Assembly (NCBI RefSeq): GCF_003334355.1
Contig: NZ_QOWP01000008.1
DNA from: Escherichia coli
GTDB taxonomy: Bacteria > Pseudomonadota > Gammaproteobacteria > Enterobacterales > Enterobacteriaceae
Reading direction: 5' to 3' (one strand)
DNA length: 64,000 bases
The notes beneath the pieces are model-generated. The model did no database searches. It had not been told where the DNA came from and saw nothing but the letters and a program-made list of their open reading frames with translations. Every line of letters starts with the position of its first letter. The first letter of the stretch is position 1. The position numbers were made by a program, and so were the translations under genes. Positions 39,806 to 44,506 of the stretch are shown in pieces.

Positions 39806-41056
39806 ATGATGGCGGGAACCGTTTTGTATCAGGACCACGCCATGAAACAGATAACCTTTGCTCCCCGTAATCACCTGCTCACCAATACCAATACCTGGAC
39901 GCCCGACAGCCAGTGGCTGGTATTTGACGTGCGTCCTTCTGGGGCGTCGTTTACCGGCGAGACCATTGAGCGTGTGAATATCCATACCGGCGAGGTCGAG
40001 GTTATCTATCGCGCGTCACAGGGCGCACATGTCGGCGTGGTGACCGTTCATCCGAAGTCAGATAAATATGTCTTTATTCACGGCCCTGAAAATCCTGATG
40101 AAACATGGCATTACGATTTCCATCATCGACGCGGAGTCATTGCTAAAGGCGGCAAGGTGAGCAATCTCGATGCAATGGATATTACTGCACCGTACACCCC
40201 AGGAGCGCTGCGCGGCGGCAGCCATGTACATGTCTTTAGCCCGGACGGTGAAAGGGTGAGCTTTACCTATAACGACCATGTAATGCATCAGCTCGATTCG
40301 GCGCTGGATTTGCGAAACGTCGGTGTTGCCGCACCGTTTGGTCCGGTGAATGTACAAAAGCAGCATCCGCGTGAATACAGCGGGAGCCACTGGTGTGTGC
40401 TGGTGAGCAAAACCACGCCCACGCCGCAGCCGGGCAGCGATGAAATCAATCGTGCTTATGAAGAAGGATGGGTAGGAAATCACGCGCTGGCGTTTATTGG
40501 CGACACACTTTCGCCAAAGGGCGAGAAAGTGCCGGAGCTGTTTATCGTTGAGTTACCGCAAGATGAAGCTGGCTGGAAAGCAGCAGGTGATGCGCCGTTA
40601 AGTGGAACGGAAACAACCCTGCCCGCGCCACCGCGTGGCGTCGTGCAGCGACGTTTAACCTTTACCCACCATCGGGCTTATCCGGGGTTAGTCAACGTCC
40701 CGCGCCACTGGGTGCGCTGTAATCCGCAGGGTACACAAATCGCGTTTTTAATGCGAGATGATAACGGCATTGTGCAACTGTGGCTTATCTCGCCACAGGG
40801 CGGCGAGCCGCGCCAGTTAACCCATAACAAAACGGATATTCAGTCTGCATTTAACTGGCATCCATCAGGAGAATGGTTGGGCTTTGTGCTGGATAATCGA
40901 ATTGCTTGTGCCCATGCGCAAAGCGGCGAGGTTGAGTATTTAACCGAAAACCACGCCAATCCACCTTCTGCGGACGCCGTGGTCTTCTCGCCGGATGGTC
41001 AATGGCTGGCGTGGATGGAAGGCGGCCAGCTGTGGATCACCGAAACTGATCGCTAA
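39806..41056 (+). CDS. yidR: Beta-propeller-like protein YidR (DUF3748)
   Basis: About 415-aa ORF; start uncertain (39806, 39809 or 39842); synteny. Confidence 0.85.
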   Translation: MMAGTVLYQDHAMKQITFAPRNHLLTNTNTWTPDSQWLVFDVRPSGASFTGETIERVNIHTGEVEVIYRASQGAHVGVVTVHPKSDKYVFIHGPENPDETWHYDFHHRRGVIAKGGKVSNLDAMDITAPYTPGALRGGSHVHVFSPDGERVSFTYNDHVMHQLDSALDLRNVGVAAPFGPVNVQKQHPREYSGSHWCVLVSKTTPTPQPGSDEINRAYEEGWVGNHALAFIGDTLSPKGEKVPELFIVELPQDEAGWKAAGDAPLSGTETTLPAPPRGVVQRRLTFTHHRAYPGLVNVPRHWVRCNPQGTQIAFLMRDDNGIVQLWLISPQGGEPRQLTHNKTDIQSAFNWHPSGEWLGFVLDNRIACAHAQSGEVEYLTENHANPPSADAVVFSPDGQWLAWMEGGQLWITETDR

Positions 41057-41057
41057 A

Positions 41058-41390
41058 TCAGTTATCAGGCATTCTGGCCGGTGGAATAACCGCATTGGTG
41101 GCTTGCGCGTTGGCTTCGCTTTTTTCAACGCGTGAGCGCACCGAGCTGTCTTTGCGGAACACATCCCACGGTAATAAAAGCGTGTCCATCACAGCGGTAA
41201 ACGGCATATCGAGAATCGCCAGCGACTTAGTGCCCCAGTTGGTTTCATCATCGCCAATCATGGTGGCGCTGGCGCGGGTGCCGGGATACGTTCCTTCTTT
41301 CCCTCCGGTATGGGACATCACGCTGGAGCATCCTCCGAGTAATGCCATTCCACTGCATATCATGAACGCTAACAACACATTTCTTATCAT
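41058..41390 (-). CDS. yidQ: Putative outer-membrane lipoprotein YidQ
   Basis: 110 aa from MIRNVLLAFMICSGMALLGGC (lipobox). Confidence 0.85.
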   Translation of the reverse strand: MIRNVLLAFMICSGMALLGGCSSVMSHTGGKEGTYPGTRASATMIGDDETNWGTKSLAILDMPFTAVMDTLLLPWDVFRKDSSVRSRVEKSEANAQATNAVIPPARMPDN

Positions 41391-41564
41391 AATAAATTCA
41401 TCTGTTGATCGTGGGTGTTGGCCTGATGAGTTATAGCGATCCCTTGCTGAAAATAACATCATCATTACGTCGCTCTGTGGCGGCAATCGCACTTTAACGT
41501 TTCGTGCTGCCCCCTCAGTCTATGCAATAGACCATAAACTGCAAAAAAAAGTCCGCTGATAAGG

Positions 41565-41593
41565 CTTGAAAAGTTCATTTTCAGACCCATTTT
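41565..41593 (+). promoter_or_regulatory. Sigma-32 heat-shock promoter of ibpA; the roughly 100-nt 5'UTR that follows is the known ROSE-like RNA-thermometer region
   Basis: CTTGAAA, 14-nt spacer, then CCCATTTT, matching the sigma-32 consensus. Confidence 0.8.
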
Positions 41594-41695
41594 TACATCG
41601 TAGCCGATGAGGACGCGCCTGATGGGTGTTCTGGCTACCTGACCTGTCCATTGTGGAAGGTCTTACATTCTCGCTGATTTCAGGAGCTATTGATT

Positions 41696-42109
41696 ATGCG
41701 TAACTTTGATTTATCCCCGCTTTACCGTTCTGCTATTGGATTTGACCGTTTGTTTAACCACTTAGAAAACAACCAGAGCCAGAGTAATGGCGGCTACCCT
41801 CCGTATAACGTTGAACTGGTAGACGAAAACCATTACCGCATTGCTATCGCTGTGGCTGGTTTTGCTGAGAGCGAACTGGAAATTACCGCCCAGGATAATC
41901 TGCTGGTGGTGAAAGGTGCTCACGCCGACGAACAAAAAGAGCGCACCTATCTGTACCAGGGCATCGCTGAACGCAACTTTGAACGCAAATTCCAGTTAGC
42001 TGAGAACATTCATGTTCGTGGCGCTAACCTGGTAAATGGTTTGCTGTATATCGATCTCGAACGCGTGATTCCGGAAGCGAAAAAACCGCGCCGTATCGAA
42101 ATCAACTAA
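41696..42109 (+). CDS. ibpA: Small heat-shock protein IbpA
   Basis: 137 aa from [19 protein letters not shown]; alpha-crystallin domain. Confidence 0.97.
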
Positions 42110-42220
42110 TTCCCTAAGGCCGCCTGGCGCGGCCTGACATCTCCATGCTCGCCGTCAGGGAGCATATGCGAATCTTCAGATTTGCAGGTACTTACTCGCT
42201 TCTTAGAAGGAGAAATGACT

Positions 42221-42649
42221 ATGCGTAACTTCGATTTATCCCCACTGATGCGTCAATGGATCGGTTTTGACAAACTGGCCAACGCACTGCAAAACGCCGG
42301 TGAAAGTCAGAGCTTCCCGCCGTACAACATTGAGAAAAGCGACGATAACCACTACCGCATTACCCTTGCGCTGGCAGGTTTCCGTCAGGAAGATTTAGAG
42401 ATTCAACTGGAAGGTACGCGCCTGAGCGTAAAAGGCACGCCGGAGCAGCCAAAAGAAGAGAAAAAATGGCTGCATCAAGGGCTTATGAATCAGCCATTTA
42501 GCCTGAGCTTTACGCTGGCTGAAAATATGGAAGTCTCTGGCGCAACCTTCGTAAACGGTTTACTGCATATTGATTTAATTCGTAATGAGCCTGAACCCAT
42601 CGCAGCGCAGCGTATCGCTATCAGCGAACGTCCCGCGTTAAATAGCTAA
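42221..42649 (+). CDS. ibpB: Small heat-shock protein IbpB
   Basis: 142 aa from [19 protein letters not shown]; paralogue of IbpA. Confidence 0.97.
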
Positions 42650-42664
42650 CTAGCTATTCTCTTT

Positions 42665-42695
42665 GCCCCGCCATTCTGGTGGGGCTTTTTTTGTC
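42665..42695 (+). terminator. Intrinsic terminator after ibpB
   Basis: gccccgcc...ggggc hairpin followed by a T7 tract. Confidence 0.75.
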
Positions 42696-42844
42696 TTTCT
42701 TCTTCAACAATGCGTTAAATTTCGCCTGTTTAAGATATTTCGGCACGTTCTTTCCCGTGATAATGTGCGCTATAAGGCAAATCTGCTTCACCGATTCAGC
42801 CATAATCCGTAGCAATTAAAATGTTATCTCAAGAGAAATGGACG

Positions 42845-44506
42845 ATGAGTGATATAGCATTAACGGTCAGTATTTTGGCTTTGGTGGCAGTCGTCGGTTT
42901 GTTTATCGGCAACGTCAAATTTCGCGGCATAGGATTAGGTATTGGCGGCGTGCTGTTTGGTGGGATCATCGTCGGCCATTTTGTTTCTCAGGCGGGGATG
43001 ACATTAAGTAGCGATATGCTGCATGTTATTCAGGAATTTGGCCTGATTCTGTTCGTTTATACTATCGGGATTCAGGTAGGGCCGGGCTTCTTTGCCTCAT
43101 TGCGCGTCTCCGGATTACGCCTCAACCTGTTTGCTGTTCTGATCGTCATCATCGGTGGTCTGGTTACCGCCATCCTGCATAAACTGTTTGATATTCCACT
43201 GCCGGTAGTGCTGGGGATTTTCTCCGGTGCGGTAACCAATACGCCAGCGCTGGGGGCAGGGCAGCAGATCTTGCGCGACTTGGGTACACCAATGGAAATG
43301 GTCGATCAGATGGGGATGAGTTACGCGATGGCGTATCCATTCGGCATTTGCGGGATATTGTTCACCATGTGGATGTTGCGGGTTATTTTCCGCGTCAATG
43401 TCGAGACAGAAGCCCAGCAGCACGAGTCTTCACGCACCAATGGCGGCGCGCTGATCAAGACTATCAATATTCGCGTTGAGAACCCTAACCTGCATGATTT
43501 AGCCATTAAAGATGTACCGATTCTCAACGGCGACAAAATTATCTGCTCGCGTCTGAAACGAGAAGAAACCCTAAAAGTACCTTCGCCAGATACCATTATC
43601 CAACTGGGCGATTTGCTGCATCTGGTGGGGCAGCCAGCGGATTTACATAATGCGCAACTGGTGATTGGTCAGGAGGTCGATACCTCGCTGTCCACGAAAG
43701 GCACTGATTTGCGCGTCGAGCGTGTGGTGGTCACCAATGAAAACGTGCTTGGTAAGCGTATTCGCGACCTGCATTTTAAAGAACGCTATGACGTTGTTAT
43801 CTCGCGCCTGAACCGTGCCGGGGTCGAACTGGTCGCCAGTGGCGATATCAGCCTGCAGTTCGGCGATATCCTCAATCTGGTGGGGCGTCCGTCCGCAATT
43901 GATGCCGTTGCCAATGTGCTGGGGAATGCGCAGCAAAAACTGCAACAGGTTCAGATGCTGCCAGTGTTTATTGGCATCGGGCTAGGCGTATTGTTAGGTT
44001 CTATTCCCGTCTTTGTGCCAGGATTCCCGGCCGCGTTGAAACTGGGGCTGGCGGGCGGACCGCTGATTATGGCGTTGATCCTCGGGCGTATCGGCAGTAT
44101 CGGCAAGCTGTACTGGTTTATGCCGCCAAGCGCCAACCTCGCGCTGCGGGAGCTGGGGATCGTGCTGTTCCTCTCGGTCGTTGGTCTGAAATCTGGTGGG
44201 GATTTTGTGAATACCCTGGTCAATGGCGAAGGGCTAAGCTGGATTGGTTATGGTGCCCTGATCACCGCCGTTCCGCTGATTACTGTTGGCATTCTGGCGC
44301 GGATGTTAGCCAAAATGAATTACCTGACCATGTGCGGGATGCTGGCAGGTTCCATGACCGATCCTCCGGCGCTGGCGTTTGCTAATAATCTTCATCCAAC
44401 CAGCGGTGCGGCGGCGCTCTCTTACGCCACTGTCTATCCGTTGGTAATGTTCCTGCGCATTATCACCCCCCAATTACTGGCGGTGCTCTTCTGGAGTATC
44501 GGTTAA
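42845..44506 (+). CDS. yidE: Putative transporter YidE (AAE family, two TrkA-C/RCK_C domains)
   Basis: 553 aa from [22 protein letters not shown]; membrane repeats flanking central soluble domains. Confidence 0.93.

Follow-up and report, generated by a model that had tools for sequence, protein, structure and literature searches.

The ibpAB operon of Escherichia coli is under sigma-32 control, and a hairpin in its mRNA limits access to the Shine-Dalgarno (SD) sequence (PMC8155344). The thermometer in the ibpA leader is among the best-studied ROSE-like elements (PMC3669281). ROSE elements are defined by a U(U/C)GCU motif with a bulged G (PMC11342760). The published thermometer has a length of 102 nt, and its temperature-labile part starts about 72 nt in (PMC3981793). 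When the ibpA leader was fused to bgaB and transcribed from a temperature-independent promoter, a 4-fold induction was obtained from 25 to 42 C (PMC3669281). The ibpA and ibpB leaders are also targets of IbpA protein: once bound, it represses translation of both genes, and aggregates relieve the repression by titrating it. This repression is abolished by stem-loop mutations and is also observed in a reconstituted cell-free system (PMC10410725, PMC10474464). Sigma-32 dependence, heat-induced translation and IbpA binding are taken here from this literature. What our own analysis provided is described below: where the motifs lie, which RNA family the leader matches, which structures are predicted and how stable they are relative to one another, and how far they are conserved and covary across species.

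The DNA analysed (the window) is a stretch of 64,000 nucleotides from E. coli. Positions 41300-42900 have 100% identity with many E. coli chromosomes, and 5420 of 5426 complete genomes contain the locus. A 171-nt control region is single-copy and chromosomal in 5418 of the 5426 complete genomes, with at least 97% identity in the records sampled across the ranking. RefSeq annotates yidQ on the minus strand (41058-41390), ibpA on the plus strand (41696-42109; WP_001243437.1, small heat shock chaperone IbpA, a small heat-shock protein of 137 aa), ibpB on the plus strand (42221-42649; WP_001243431.1) and yidE downstream of ibpB. A preliminary description made from the letters of the window had named the two genes ibpA and ibpB; the identity to E. 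coli chromosomes and the annotation there bear this out. RefSeq also carries a "ROSE" sequence feature, whose equivalent position in the window is 41630-41702. The operon ends in an intrinsic terminator at 42665-42692 (+), with a 9-bp stem (7 GC pairs) followed by T7. Two minus-strand open reading frames over the leader (41465-41590 and 41520-41651) were rejected as genes because conservation in this region takes the form of compensatory pairing and is not codon-like, and because RefSeq annotates nothing there. We conclude, with a probability of about 0.93, that the DNA in question is the native region by which E. coli controls its small heat-shock operon ibpAB, comprising a sigma-32 promoter, a ROSE leader, a gate at ibpB and IbpA feedback.

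The promoter has the -35 element CTTGAAA at 41565-41571 (+) and the -10 element ACCCATTTT at 41585-41593 (+). PMC6687850, citing Nonaka 2006, gives TTGAAA (-35) and CCCCATWT/CCCCATNT (-10) as the consensus of sigma-32 promoters in E. coli. The -35 element agrees with TTGAAA at 6 of 6 positions and the -10 element with CCCCATWT at 7 of 8; the -10 8-mer here is ACCCATTT, in which the first C of the consensus C-run is replaced by A. The spacer (41572-41585) is 14 nt when measured to CCCATTTT (41586-41593) and 13 nt when measured to the 8-mer. The preliminary description had given CTTGAAA-14 nt-CCCATTTT at 41565-41593 as a near-consensus sigma-32 promoter. These coordinates are exact on reading the sequence, and the match to the consensus and its conservation in other species agree with that assignment.

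The conservation was examined in a set of one genome per species, which was scanned for the CDS start ATGCGNAAYTTYGAYYTNTCNCC, so that the leader itself was left unconstrained. The scan gave 120 loci, 67 of which are Enterobacterales ibpA and 51 other small heat-shock protein (sHSP) genes of alpha-, beta- and gamma-proteobacteria. Of the 67 Enterobacterales species, 58 had CTTGAAA-N14-CCCATNT upstream of ibpA with two mismatches at most, and the spacer was always 14 nt. The distance from the end of the promoter motif to the ATG was 102-116 nt in most Enterobacterales ibpA loci, and a conserved TGTAGCC lies 3' of the -10 element in other species. An A8 tract at 41544-41551 (+) lies 14-21 nt upstream of the -35 element. 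Of 57 distinct ibpA promoters from Enterobacterales, 48 have a run of at least five A, and the aligned A-tract columns are 70-90% identical. The position of the tract suits an UP element, and it may serve as a contact site for the alpha subunit.

Could the promoter be a chance match, or belong to another sigma factor such as sigma-70 or sigma-54, with a leader structure that has no function? The one mismatch to CCCCATWT and a core sigma-54-like TGG-N9-TGC at 42030-42045, inside ibpA, may be cited for this explanation. Against it, CTTGAAA-N13-15-CCCATNT has a single match on both strands of the 64-kb window, while 0.02 are expected by chance as estimated from dinucleotide-preserving shuffles (2 of 100 shuffles contained a match). 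The invariant spacer in the 58 species argues in the same direction, and a sigma-70 scan of 41000-43000 found no sigma-70-like site. The leader moreover shows strong covariation and an Rfam score far over the threshold, both given below. The Rfam match, the rarity of the motif, its conservation and the covariation together effectively refute this explanation, and the sigma-32 promoter is retained. Two sigma-54 candidates were also considered and set aside. The sigma-54 promoter reported for ibpB, searched as TGGCAC-N5-TTGCA with 3 mismatches, gave 189 matches as compared to 220 expected, and the scan was therefore uninformative. For the core GG/GC site at 42030-42045, the observed count was reached in 8 of 200 shuffles, which we do not take as above chance, and the site lies in conserved coding sequence.

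From the promoter geometry we infer a probable transcription start at 41599-41600 (+), 6-7 nt past the -10 element. The end of the -10 element is 102 nt from the ibpA ATG (41696), and the leader would therefore be about 96 nt long (about 41600-41695), close to the roughly 100 nt suggested in the preliminary description. The labile part of the published thermometer, at about 72 nt into its 102 nt, would fall near 41670 in the window. This is where the third leader hairpin starts, in agreement with the inferred transcription start.

The Rfam model ROSE_2 (RF01832) matched 41630-41702 (+) with 100.4 bits (E = 4.5e-23; gathering score 65), over its full length (model positions 1-73 of 73). The model spans only the 3' arm of hairpin I and the sequence beyond it, the start codon included; the whole leader begins near 41600. 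The ROSE_3 model gave a weak score of 20.8 bits in the window, as compared to its gathering score of 43. The leader adjoins the 5' side of an sHSP gene and contains three hairpins, in line with the location of ROSE elements and with their two to four hairpins. The match and the RefSeq feature support the ROSE-like thermometer that had been proposed for the leader.

Hairpin I (41600-41638, +) has a nearly invariant apex, GCC-N4-GGG, and is predicted in the minimum free energy (MFE) fold; its energy at 37 C is -18.5 kcal/mol. Hairpin II (41641-41662, +) pairs GACCU-G-UCCA with UGGAAGGUC at -9.0 kcal/mol at 37 C. It has a bulged G of its own (41646) and a purine-rich, SD-like 3' arm, and its CCTGTCC is nearly invariant. 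Both hairpins were present in the MFE fold of 41600-41715 at all temperatures tested. Hairpin III (41670-41686, +), which is given by the Rfam consensus and by the local MFE fold, pairs CUC-G-CUG (41670-41676) with CAGGAG (41681-41686). Its UCGCU (41671-41675) lies opposite the SD sequence AGGAG (41682-41686), the end of which is 9 nt before the ATG. Both the Rfam consensus and the MFE prediction for the local segment at 25-45 C leave G41673 bulged. With predicted energies of -4.6 kcal/mol at 37 C and -3.8 kcal/mol at 42 C, hairpin III is the weakest of the three. As modelled, hairpin III with UCGCU and a bulged G41673 is the defining signature of a ROSE element. The folding check recommended in the preliminary description, a search for an SD-sequestering hairpin with a bulged G, thus recovered such a hairpin.

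When the local segment is folded by itself, hairpin III is the MFE structure at 25-45 C; in the full leader it belongs to the MFE fold at 20, 25, 42, 45 and 50 C. The full-leader MFE fold at 30 and 37 C has in its place an alternative of similar energy, which pairs 41672-41674 with 41698-41700 and 41680-41683 with 41690-41693 and so covers part of the SD sequence together with the start-codon G. We did not accept the absence of hairpin III from the 37 C full-leader MFE fold as a refutation, because the hairpin is optimal locally and its competitor in the full leader likewise covers part of the SD sequence, along with the start codon. In the full-leader ensemble, the probability that the SD sequence is paired stays at 0.61-0.73 over 20-50 C, with no switch in the nearest-neighbour model. 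Because this probability is nearly constant, the computation shows the existence of hairpin III, not its switching; the nearest-neighbour model is inadequate to prove or disprove thermosensing. The fold of the whole leader is modestly better than that of shuffled sequences (z = -1.8).

Covariation gave a separate view of these structures. We aligned 65 distinct Enterobacterales leaders with MAFFT and counted pairs on the three-hairpin structure. Of the alignment cells, 84.1% were paired, compared to 36-53% when the 3' partners were slid by 1-3 columns. Both-side changes were found in 206 cells versus 78 in shuffles, and the covariation score was 0.282 versus 0.156, a value reached by none of 500 shuffles. 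The upper stem of hairpin I was 90% paired, with both-side changes in 6 of 9 pairs. The basal 6 pairs of hairpin I were only 46-53% paired in the alignment, probably owing to misalignment of a region of variable length. Hairpin II was 89.7% paired and had both-side changes in 5 of 9 pairs. For the core of hairpin III the paired share was 99%, and its sequence was almost invariant within Enterobacterales. Outer CA/UG pairs that Rfam includes in hairpin III (41666-41667/41691-41692) were only 60% paired and were excluded from the core.

Since hairpin III is nearly invariant in Enterobacterales, its covariation support comes solely from more distant leaders. The motif UYGCU was found in 113 of 116 distinct sHSP leaders of alpha-, beta- and gamma-proteobacteria. 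We used strict UYGCU; the looser UYG[CA]U also matched spurious TTGAT sites beside the ATG. The third pair outside the bulged G was CG in 62, AU in 38, GC in 7 and GU in 4 leaders (98% paired, as compared to 9% when slid). The loop-side pair was GC in 53, CG in 27, UG in 12, UA in 12 and GU in 7 (98% versus 21%), and it played no part in the choice of anchor, while anchoring on the motif is otherwise partly fitted to the stem.

The leader may also be viewed mainly as an operator for IbpA, that is, as a sensor of aggregation, in which direct melting of hairpin III by heat would play a minor role in vivo. The published repression of ibpA and ibpB by IbpA through the 5' UTR, which stem-loop mutants lose (PMC10410725, PMC10474464), fits this explanation, as do the near-invariance of hairpins I and II beyond what pairing needs (GCC-N4-GGG; CCUGUCC/GGAAGG) and the lack of a sharp thermal switch in the folding model. 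However, the bgaB fusion of the ibpA leader was induced 4-fold by heat from a promoter that does not respond to temperature (PMC3669281), and a related ROSE element is induced less by heat when its bulged G is deleted (PMC11342760). The U(U/C)GCU hairpin with its bulged G is also kept in the sHSP leaders of very distant proteobacteria. We consider it unlikely that the leader is chiefly an operator. An IbpA operator and a thermometer are compatible and not exclusive.

The ibpA-ibpB spacer (42110-42220) was folded as 42107-42240, and four hairpins were predicted in it. The preliminary description had proposed two spacer hairpins that might modulate ibpB expression. It was right as to the kind of control; the number was too low, and the ROSE-like nature of the last one, which lies over the ibpB SD sequence, was overlooked. 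Hairpin 1 (42117-42135, +), a GC-rich hairpin of 7 bp without a T-run, directly follows the ibpA stop codon and has -13.9 kcal/mol at 37 C. Hairpin 2 (42145-42165, +) pairs AUGCUC-G-CC with GGGAGCAU at -10.1 kcal/mol at 37 C, and its bulged G42151 faces an SD-like GGGAG. Hairpin 3 (42167-42186, +) has 8 bp and -7.5 kcal/mol at 37 C. The ibpB SD hairpin (42195-42212, +) pairs CUC-G-CUUC with GAAGGAG and contains UCGCU with a bulged G42198 (-5.1 kcal/mol at 37 C).

Over the spacers of 37 other species, 90.2% of the cells were paired overall, versus 43-55% when slid. Across the 37 species, hairpin 1 was 89% paired with both-side changes in 3 of 7 pairs, and hairpin 2 was 86% paired with GCUYGCCG..A.GG nearly invariant. 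Hairpin 3 showed both-side changes in 6 of 7 pairs and is absent from the listed Citrobacter, Kluyvera and Serratia oryzae loci. The ibpB SD hairpin was 100% paired with 5 of 7 pairs invariant, and four species had a CUUGCU variant. The ROSE, ROSE_2 and ROSE_3 models gave no match at E <= 1 to 42110-42230. With the ibpB SD sequence hidden and G42198 bulged in the predicted structure, this hairpin would form a second ROSE-like gate; as modelled, it is ROSE-like in design and lies outside the curated Rfam families.

The other hairpins of the two leaders might act mainly in mRNA stability or processing. Leader hairpins I and II and spacer hairpins 1-3 would then protect 5' ends or provide RNase E signals that separate the ibpA and ibpB transcripts, outside the thermosensor. 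These five hairpins covary and stay stable over the temperatures tested (-7.5 to -18.5 kcal/mol), and spacer hairpin 1 adjoins the ibpA stop codon as a 3' stabiliser would. Gaubig et al. reportedly found in 2011 that the bicistronic ibpAB transcript is processed by RNase E. This explanation concerns the accessory hairpins only, however, and hairpin III stays the gate under it. Deletion of the upstream hairpins of ROSE1 also cut the temperature responsiveness, which implies a role of such hairpins in folding (PMC3669281). A role mainly in stability or processing seems to us quite improbable, and we prefer to see hairpins I and II as part of the thermometer.

Some parts of the two leaders are conserved in sequence beyond structural need, namely the apex of hairpin I, hairpin II and spacer hairpin 2. 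In hairpin II (CCU-G-UCC/GGAAGG) and in spacer hairpin 2 (CUC-G-CC/GGGAG), the purine-rich 3' arm mimics a Shine-Dalgarno sequence. Because a bulged G faces these SD-like purines, each leader would have two hairpins of ROSE-like design. Judged from sequence, hairpin II and spacer hairpin 2 might be "pseudo-ROSE" hairpins that serve as specific determinants for IbpA oligomers, or as standby or decoy sites for the ribosome. We offer this as a tentative idea that is doubtful at present. If it is true, hairpin II and spacer hairpin 2 are not passive scaffolds.

The best-supported account of the locus has three layers: transcription by sigma-32, translation of ibpA and ibpB gated by thermometers, and feedback by IbpA, which acts on these same RNA structures. 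RNA polymerase with sigma-32 (RpoH) would start at about 41599-41600 from CTTGAAA and ACCCATTTT, possibly aided by the A-tract, so that transcription would go up when sigma-32 accumulates after heat or protein-misfolding stress. In the transcript, the stable 5' hairpins I and II would act as a scaffold for the short and weak 3' hairpin III. At low temperature, UCGCU would be imperfectly paired with AGGAG around the bulged G41673 and the ribosome-binding site would be hidden. Upon heating, hairpin III would melt first and 30S subunits could bind. Translation of ibpB would be gated by the second hairpin of like design at 42195-42212. As the third layer, known from published work, IbpA protein binds the structured leaders and keeps ibpA and ibpB translation repressed as long as aggregates do not titrate it.

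The promoter, both thermometers (ibpA and ibpB) and the IbpA autoregulation have all been published, and the ROSE element is already in RefSeq. The preliminary description was correct, except for the number of spacer hairpins, and its subject is ordinary, the well-known ibpA control region. The value of this analysis is confirmatory, in that a textbook heat-shock control region with several layers was correctly recognised from raw sequence. The 116 leaders and 37 spacers provide an independent structural check, and the parts conserved beyond structural need are candidate protein-contact sites.

Compared with known systems, the promoter shares with the sigma-32 promoters of E. coli the -35 element (6/6), the -10 element (7/8) and the 13-nt spacer to the 8-mer. 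The sigma-32 consensus as stated does not include the conserved upstream A-tract that is present at ibpA. The ibpB leader thermometer (Gaubig et al. 2011, cited in PMC10410725 and PMC8155344) matches the hairpin at 42195-42212, with UCGCU, a bulged G and stable hairpins upstream. The upstream hairpins of ibpB are unrelated in sequence to those of ibpA, and the two leaders have been called "not identical" (PMC10410725). ROSE1 of Bradyrhizobium japonicum hspA and the short ROSE-like thermometers of Pseudomonas ibpA also have imperfect pairing of U(U/C)GCU with the SD sequence, a bulged G, a 3'-proximal hairpin and a position in an sHSP leader (PMC3669281). They differ in the number of hairpins, which is four in ROSE1 and two in Pseudomonas (PMC3669281) and three in the leader analysed here. 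The closest system is the E. coli ibpA ROSE-like thermometer itself (RF01832; Waldminghaus et al. 2009, cited in PMC3669281). The title of that work, as cited there, speaks of "stable and unstable elements", the same arrangement as in this leader. The two are the same element with no difference: the locus is identical, and stable 5' hairpins precede an unstable SD hairpin with UCGCU and a bulged G.

The ROSE design, in which a U(U/C)GCU (UYGCU) motif pairs with the Shine-Dalgarno sequence around a bulged G, recurs in the ibpAB control regions away from the hairpins that cover the Shine-Dalgarno sequences themselves. In the predicted fold of the ibpA leader, hairpin II (41641-41662, plus strand) places the bulged G41646 opposite a Shine-Dalgarno-like purine run, GGAAGG. 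Hairpin 2 of the ibpA-ibpB spacer (42145-42165, plus strand) is likewise predicted to place the bulged G42151 opposite the purine run GGGAG. Because both hairpins set a bulged G against such a run, each leader would contain two hairpins of ROSE-like design. Hairpin II and spacer hairpin 2 are both nearly invariant among the species compared.

Comparison of Enterobacter-type with Citrobacter-type sequences indicates that the ibpA-ibpB spacer is modular. The spacers of Enterobacter and its relatives (sHSP gene loci L009, L019, L076, L086, L109 and L114, from one genome per species) carry an additional insert of about 25-30 nt with the inverted repeat GTGCACA...TGTGC, located 5' of the Shine-Dalgarno hairpin, whereas spacer hairpin 3 is wholly absent from the Citrobacter-type spacers (L003, L012, L052, L078 and L117). 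At the end of the spacer, an in-frame ATG (42215-42217, plus strand) lies two codons 5' of the annotated ibpB start (ATG ACT ATG CGT). This ATG is unlikely to serve as the ibpB start because it is only 2 nt past the Shine-Dalgarno sequence GAAGGAG; the annotated ATG at 42221 has an 8-nt spacing.

The strict UYGCU motif was absent from 3 of the 116 sHSP leaders (L017, L096 and L103), and these may use a variant anti-Shine-Dalgarno sequence; L096, from the Enterobacterales, carries CUCGAUA...GGAGGA. In the ibpA leader of Cedecea neteri NBRC 105707 (L070:3595-3706), AUGAG stands in place of AGGAG, the Shine-Dalgarno sequence that is invariant otherwise (CTCGCTGATTTCATGAGC), a change predicted to remove one pair of hairpin III and to weaken the Shine-Dalgarno sequence. 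Either an error in sequencing or a down-mutation specific to this strain may account for the change. Within E. coli, the 171-nt ibpA control region had no match in 8 of 5426 complete genomes and the wider 1.6 kb stretch (41300-42900) had none in 6 of the 5426; deletions or assembly gaps may account for these cases.

Upstream of the sigma-32 promoter, an A8 tract (41544-41551, plus strand) lies 14-21 nt 5' of the -35 element, a position that fits a candidate UP element. Of 57 distinct ibpA promoters from the Enterobacterales, 48 keep the tract, and its alignment columns are 70-90% identical. A sigma-54 promoter has reportedly been described for ibpB (Kuczynska-Wisnik 2001). A sigma-54-like core, GG-N10-GC (TGGTAAATGGTTTGCT; 42030-42045, plus strand), is found within ibpA about 180 nt upstream of ibpB; it is not above chance and sits in conserved coding sequence.

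Three known RNA families were also matched in the window. The ES036/CssrF sRNA (Rfam RF02751; 31457-31499, minus strand) scored 44.8 bits, slightly over the gathering score of 37.6. The istR match (RF01400; 56300-56429, plus strand) is full-length and scores 150.1 bits, where the gathering score is 45; istR is an antitoxin RNA that binds Hfq and belongs to the tisB/istR locus. AsdA, an RNA antisense to dnaA mRNA, was also matched at full length (RF02674; 25900-25980, minus strand; 101.9 bits, gathering score 52), which places the window in the dnaA-to-ibpAB region of the E. coli chromosome.
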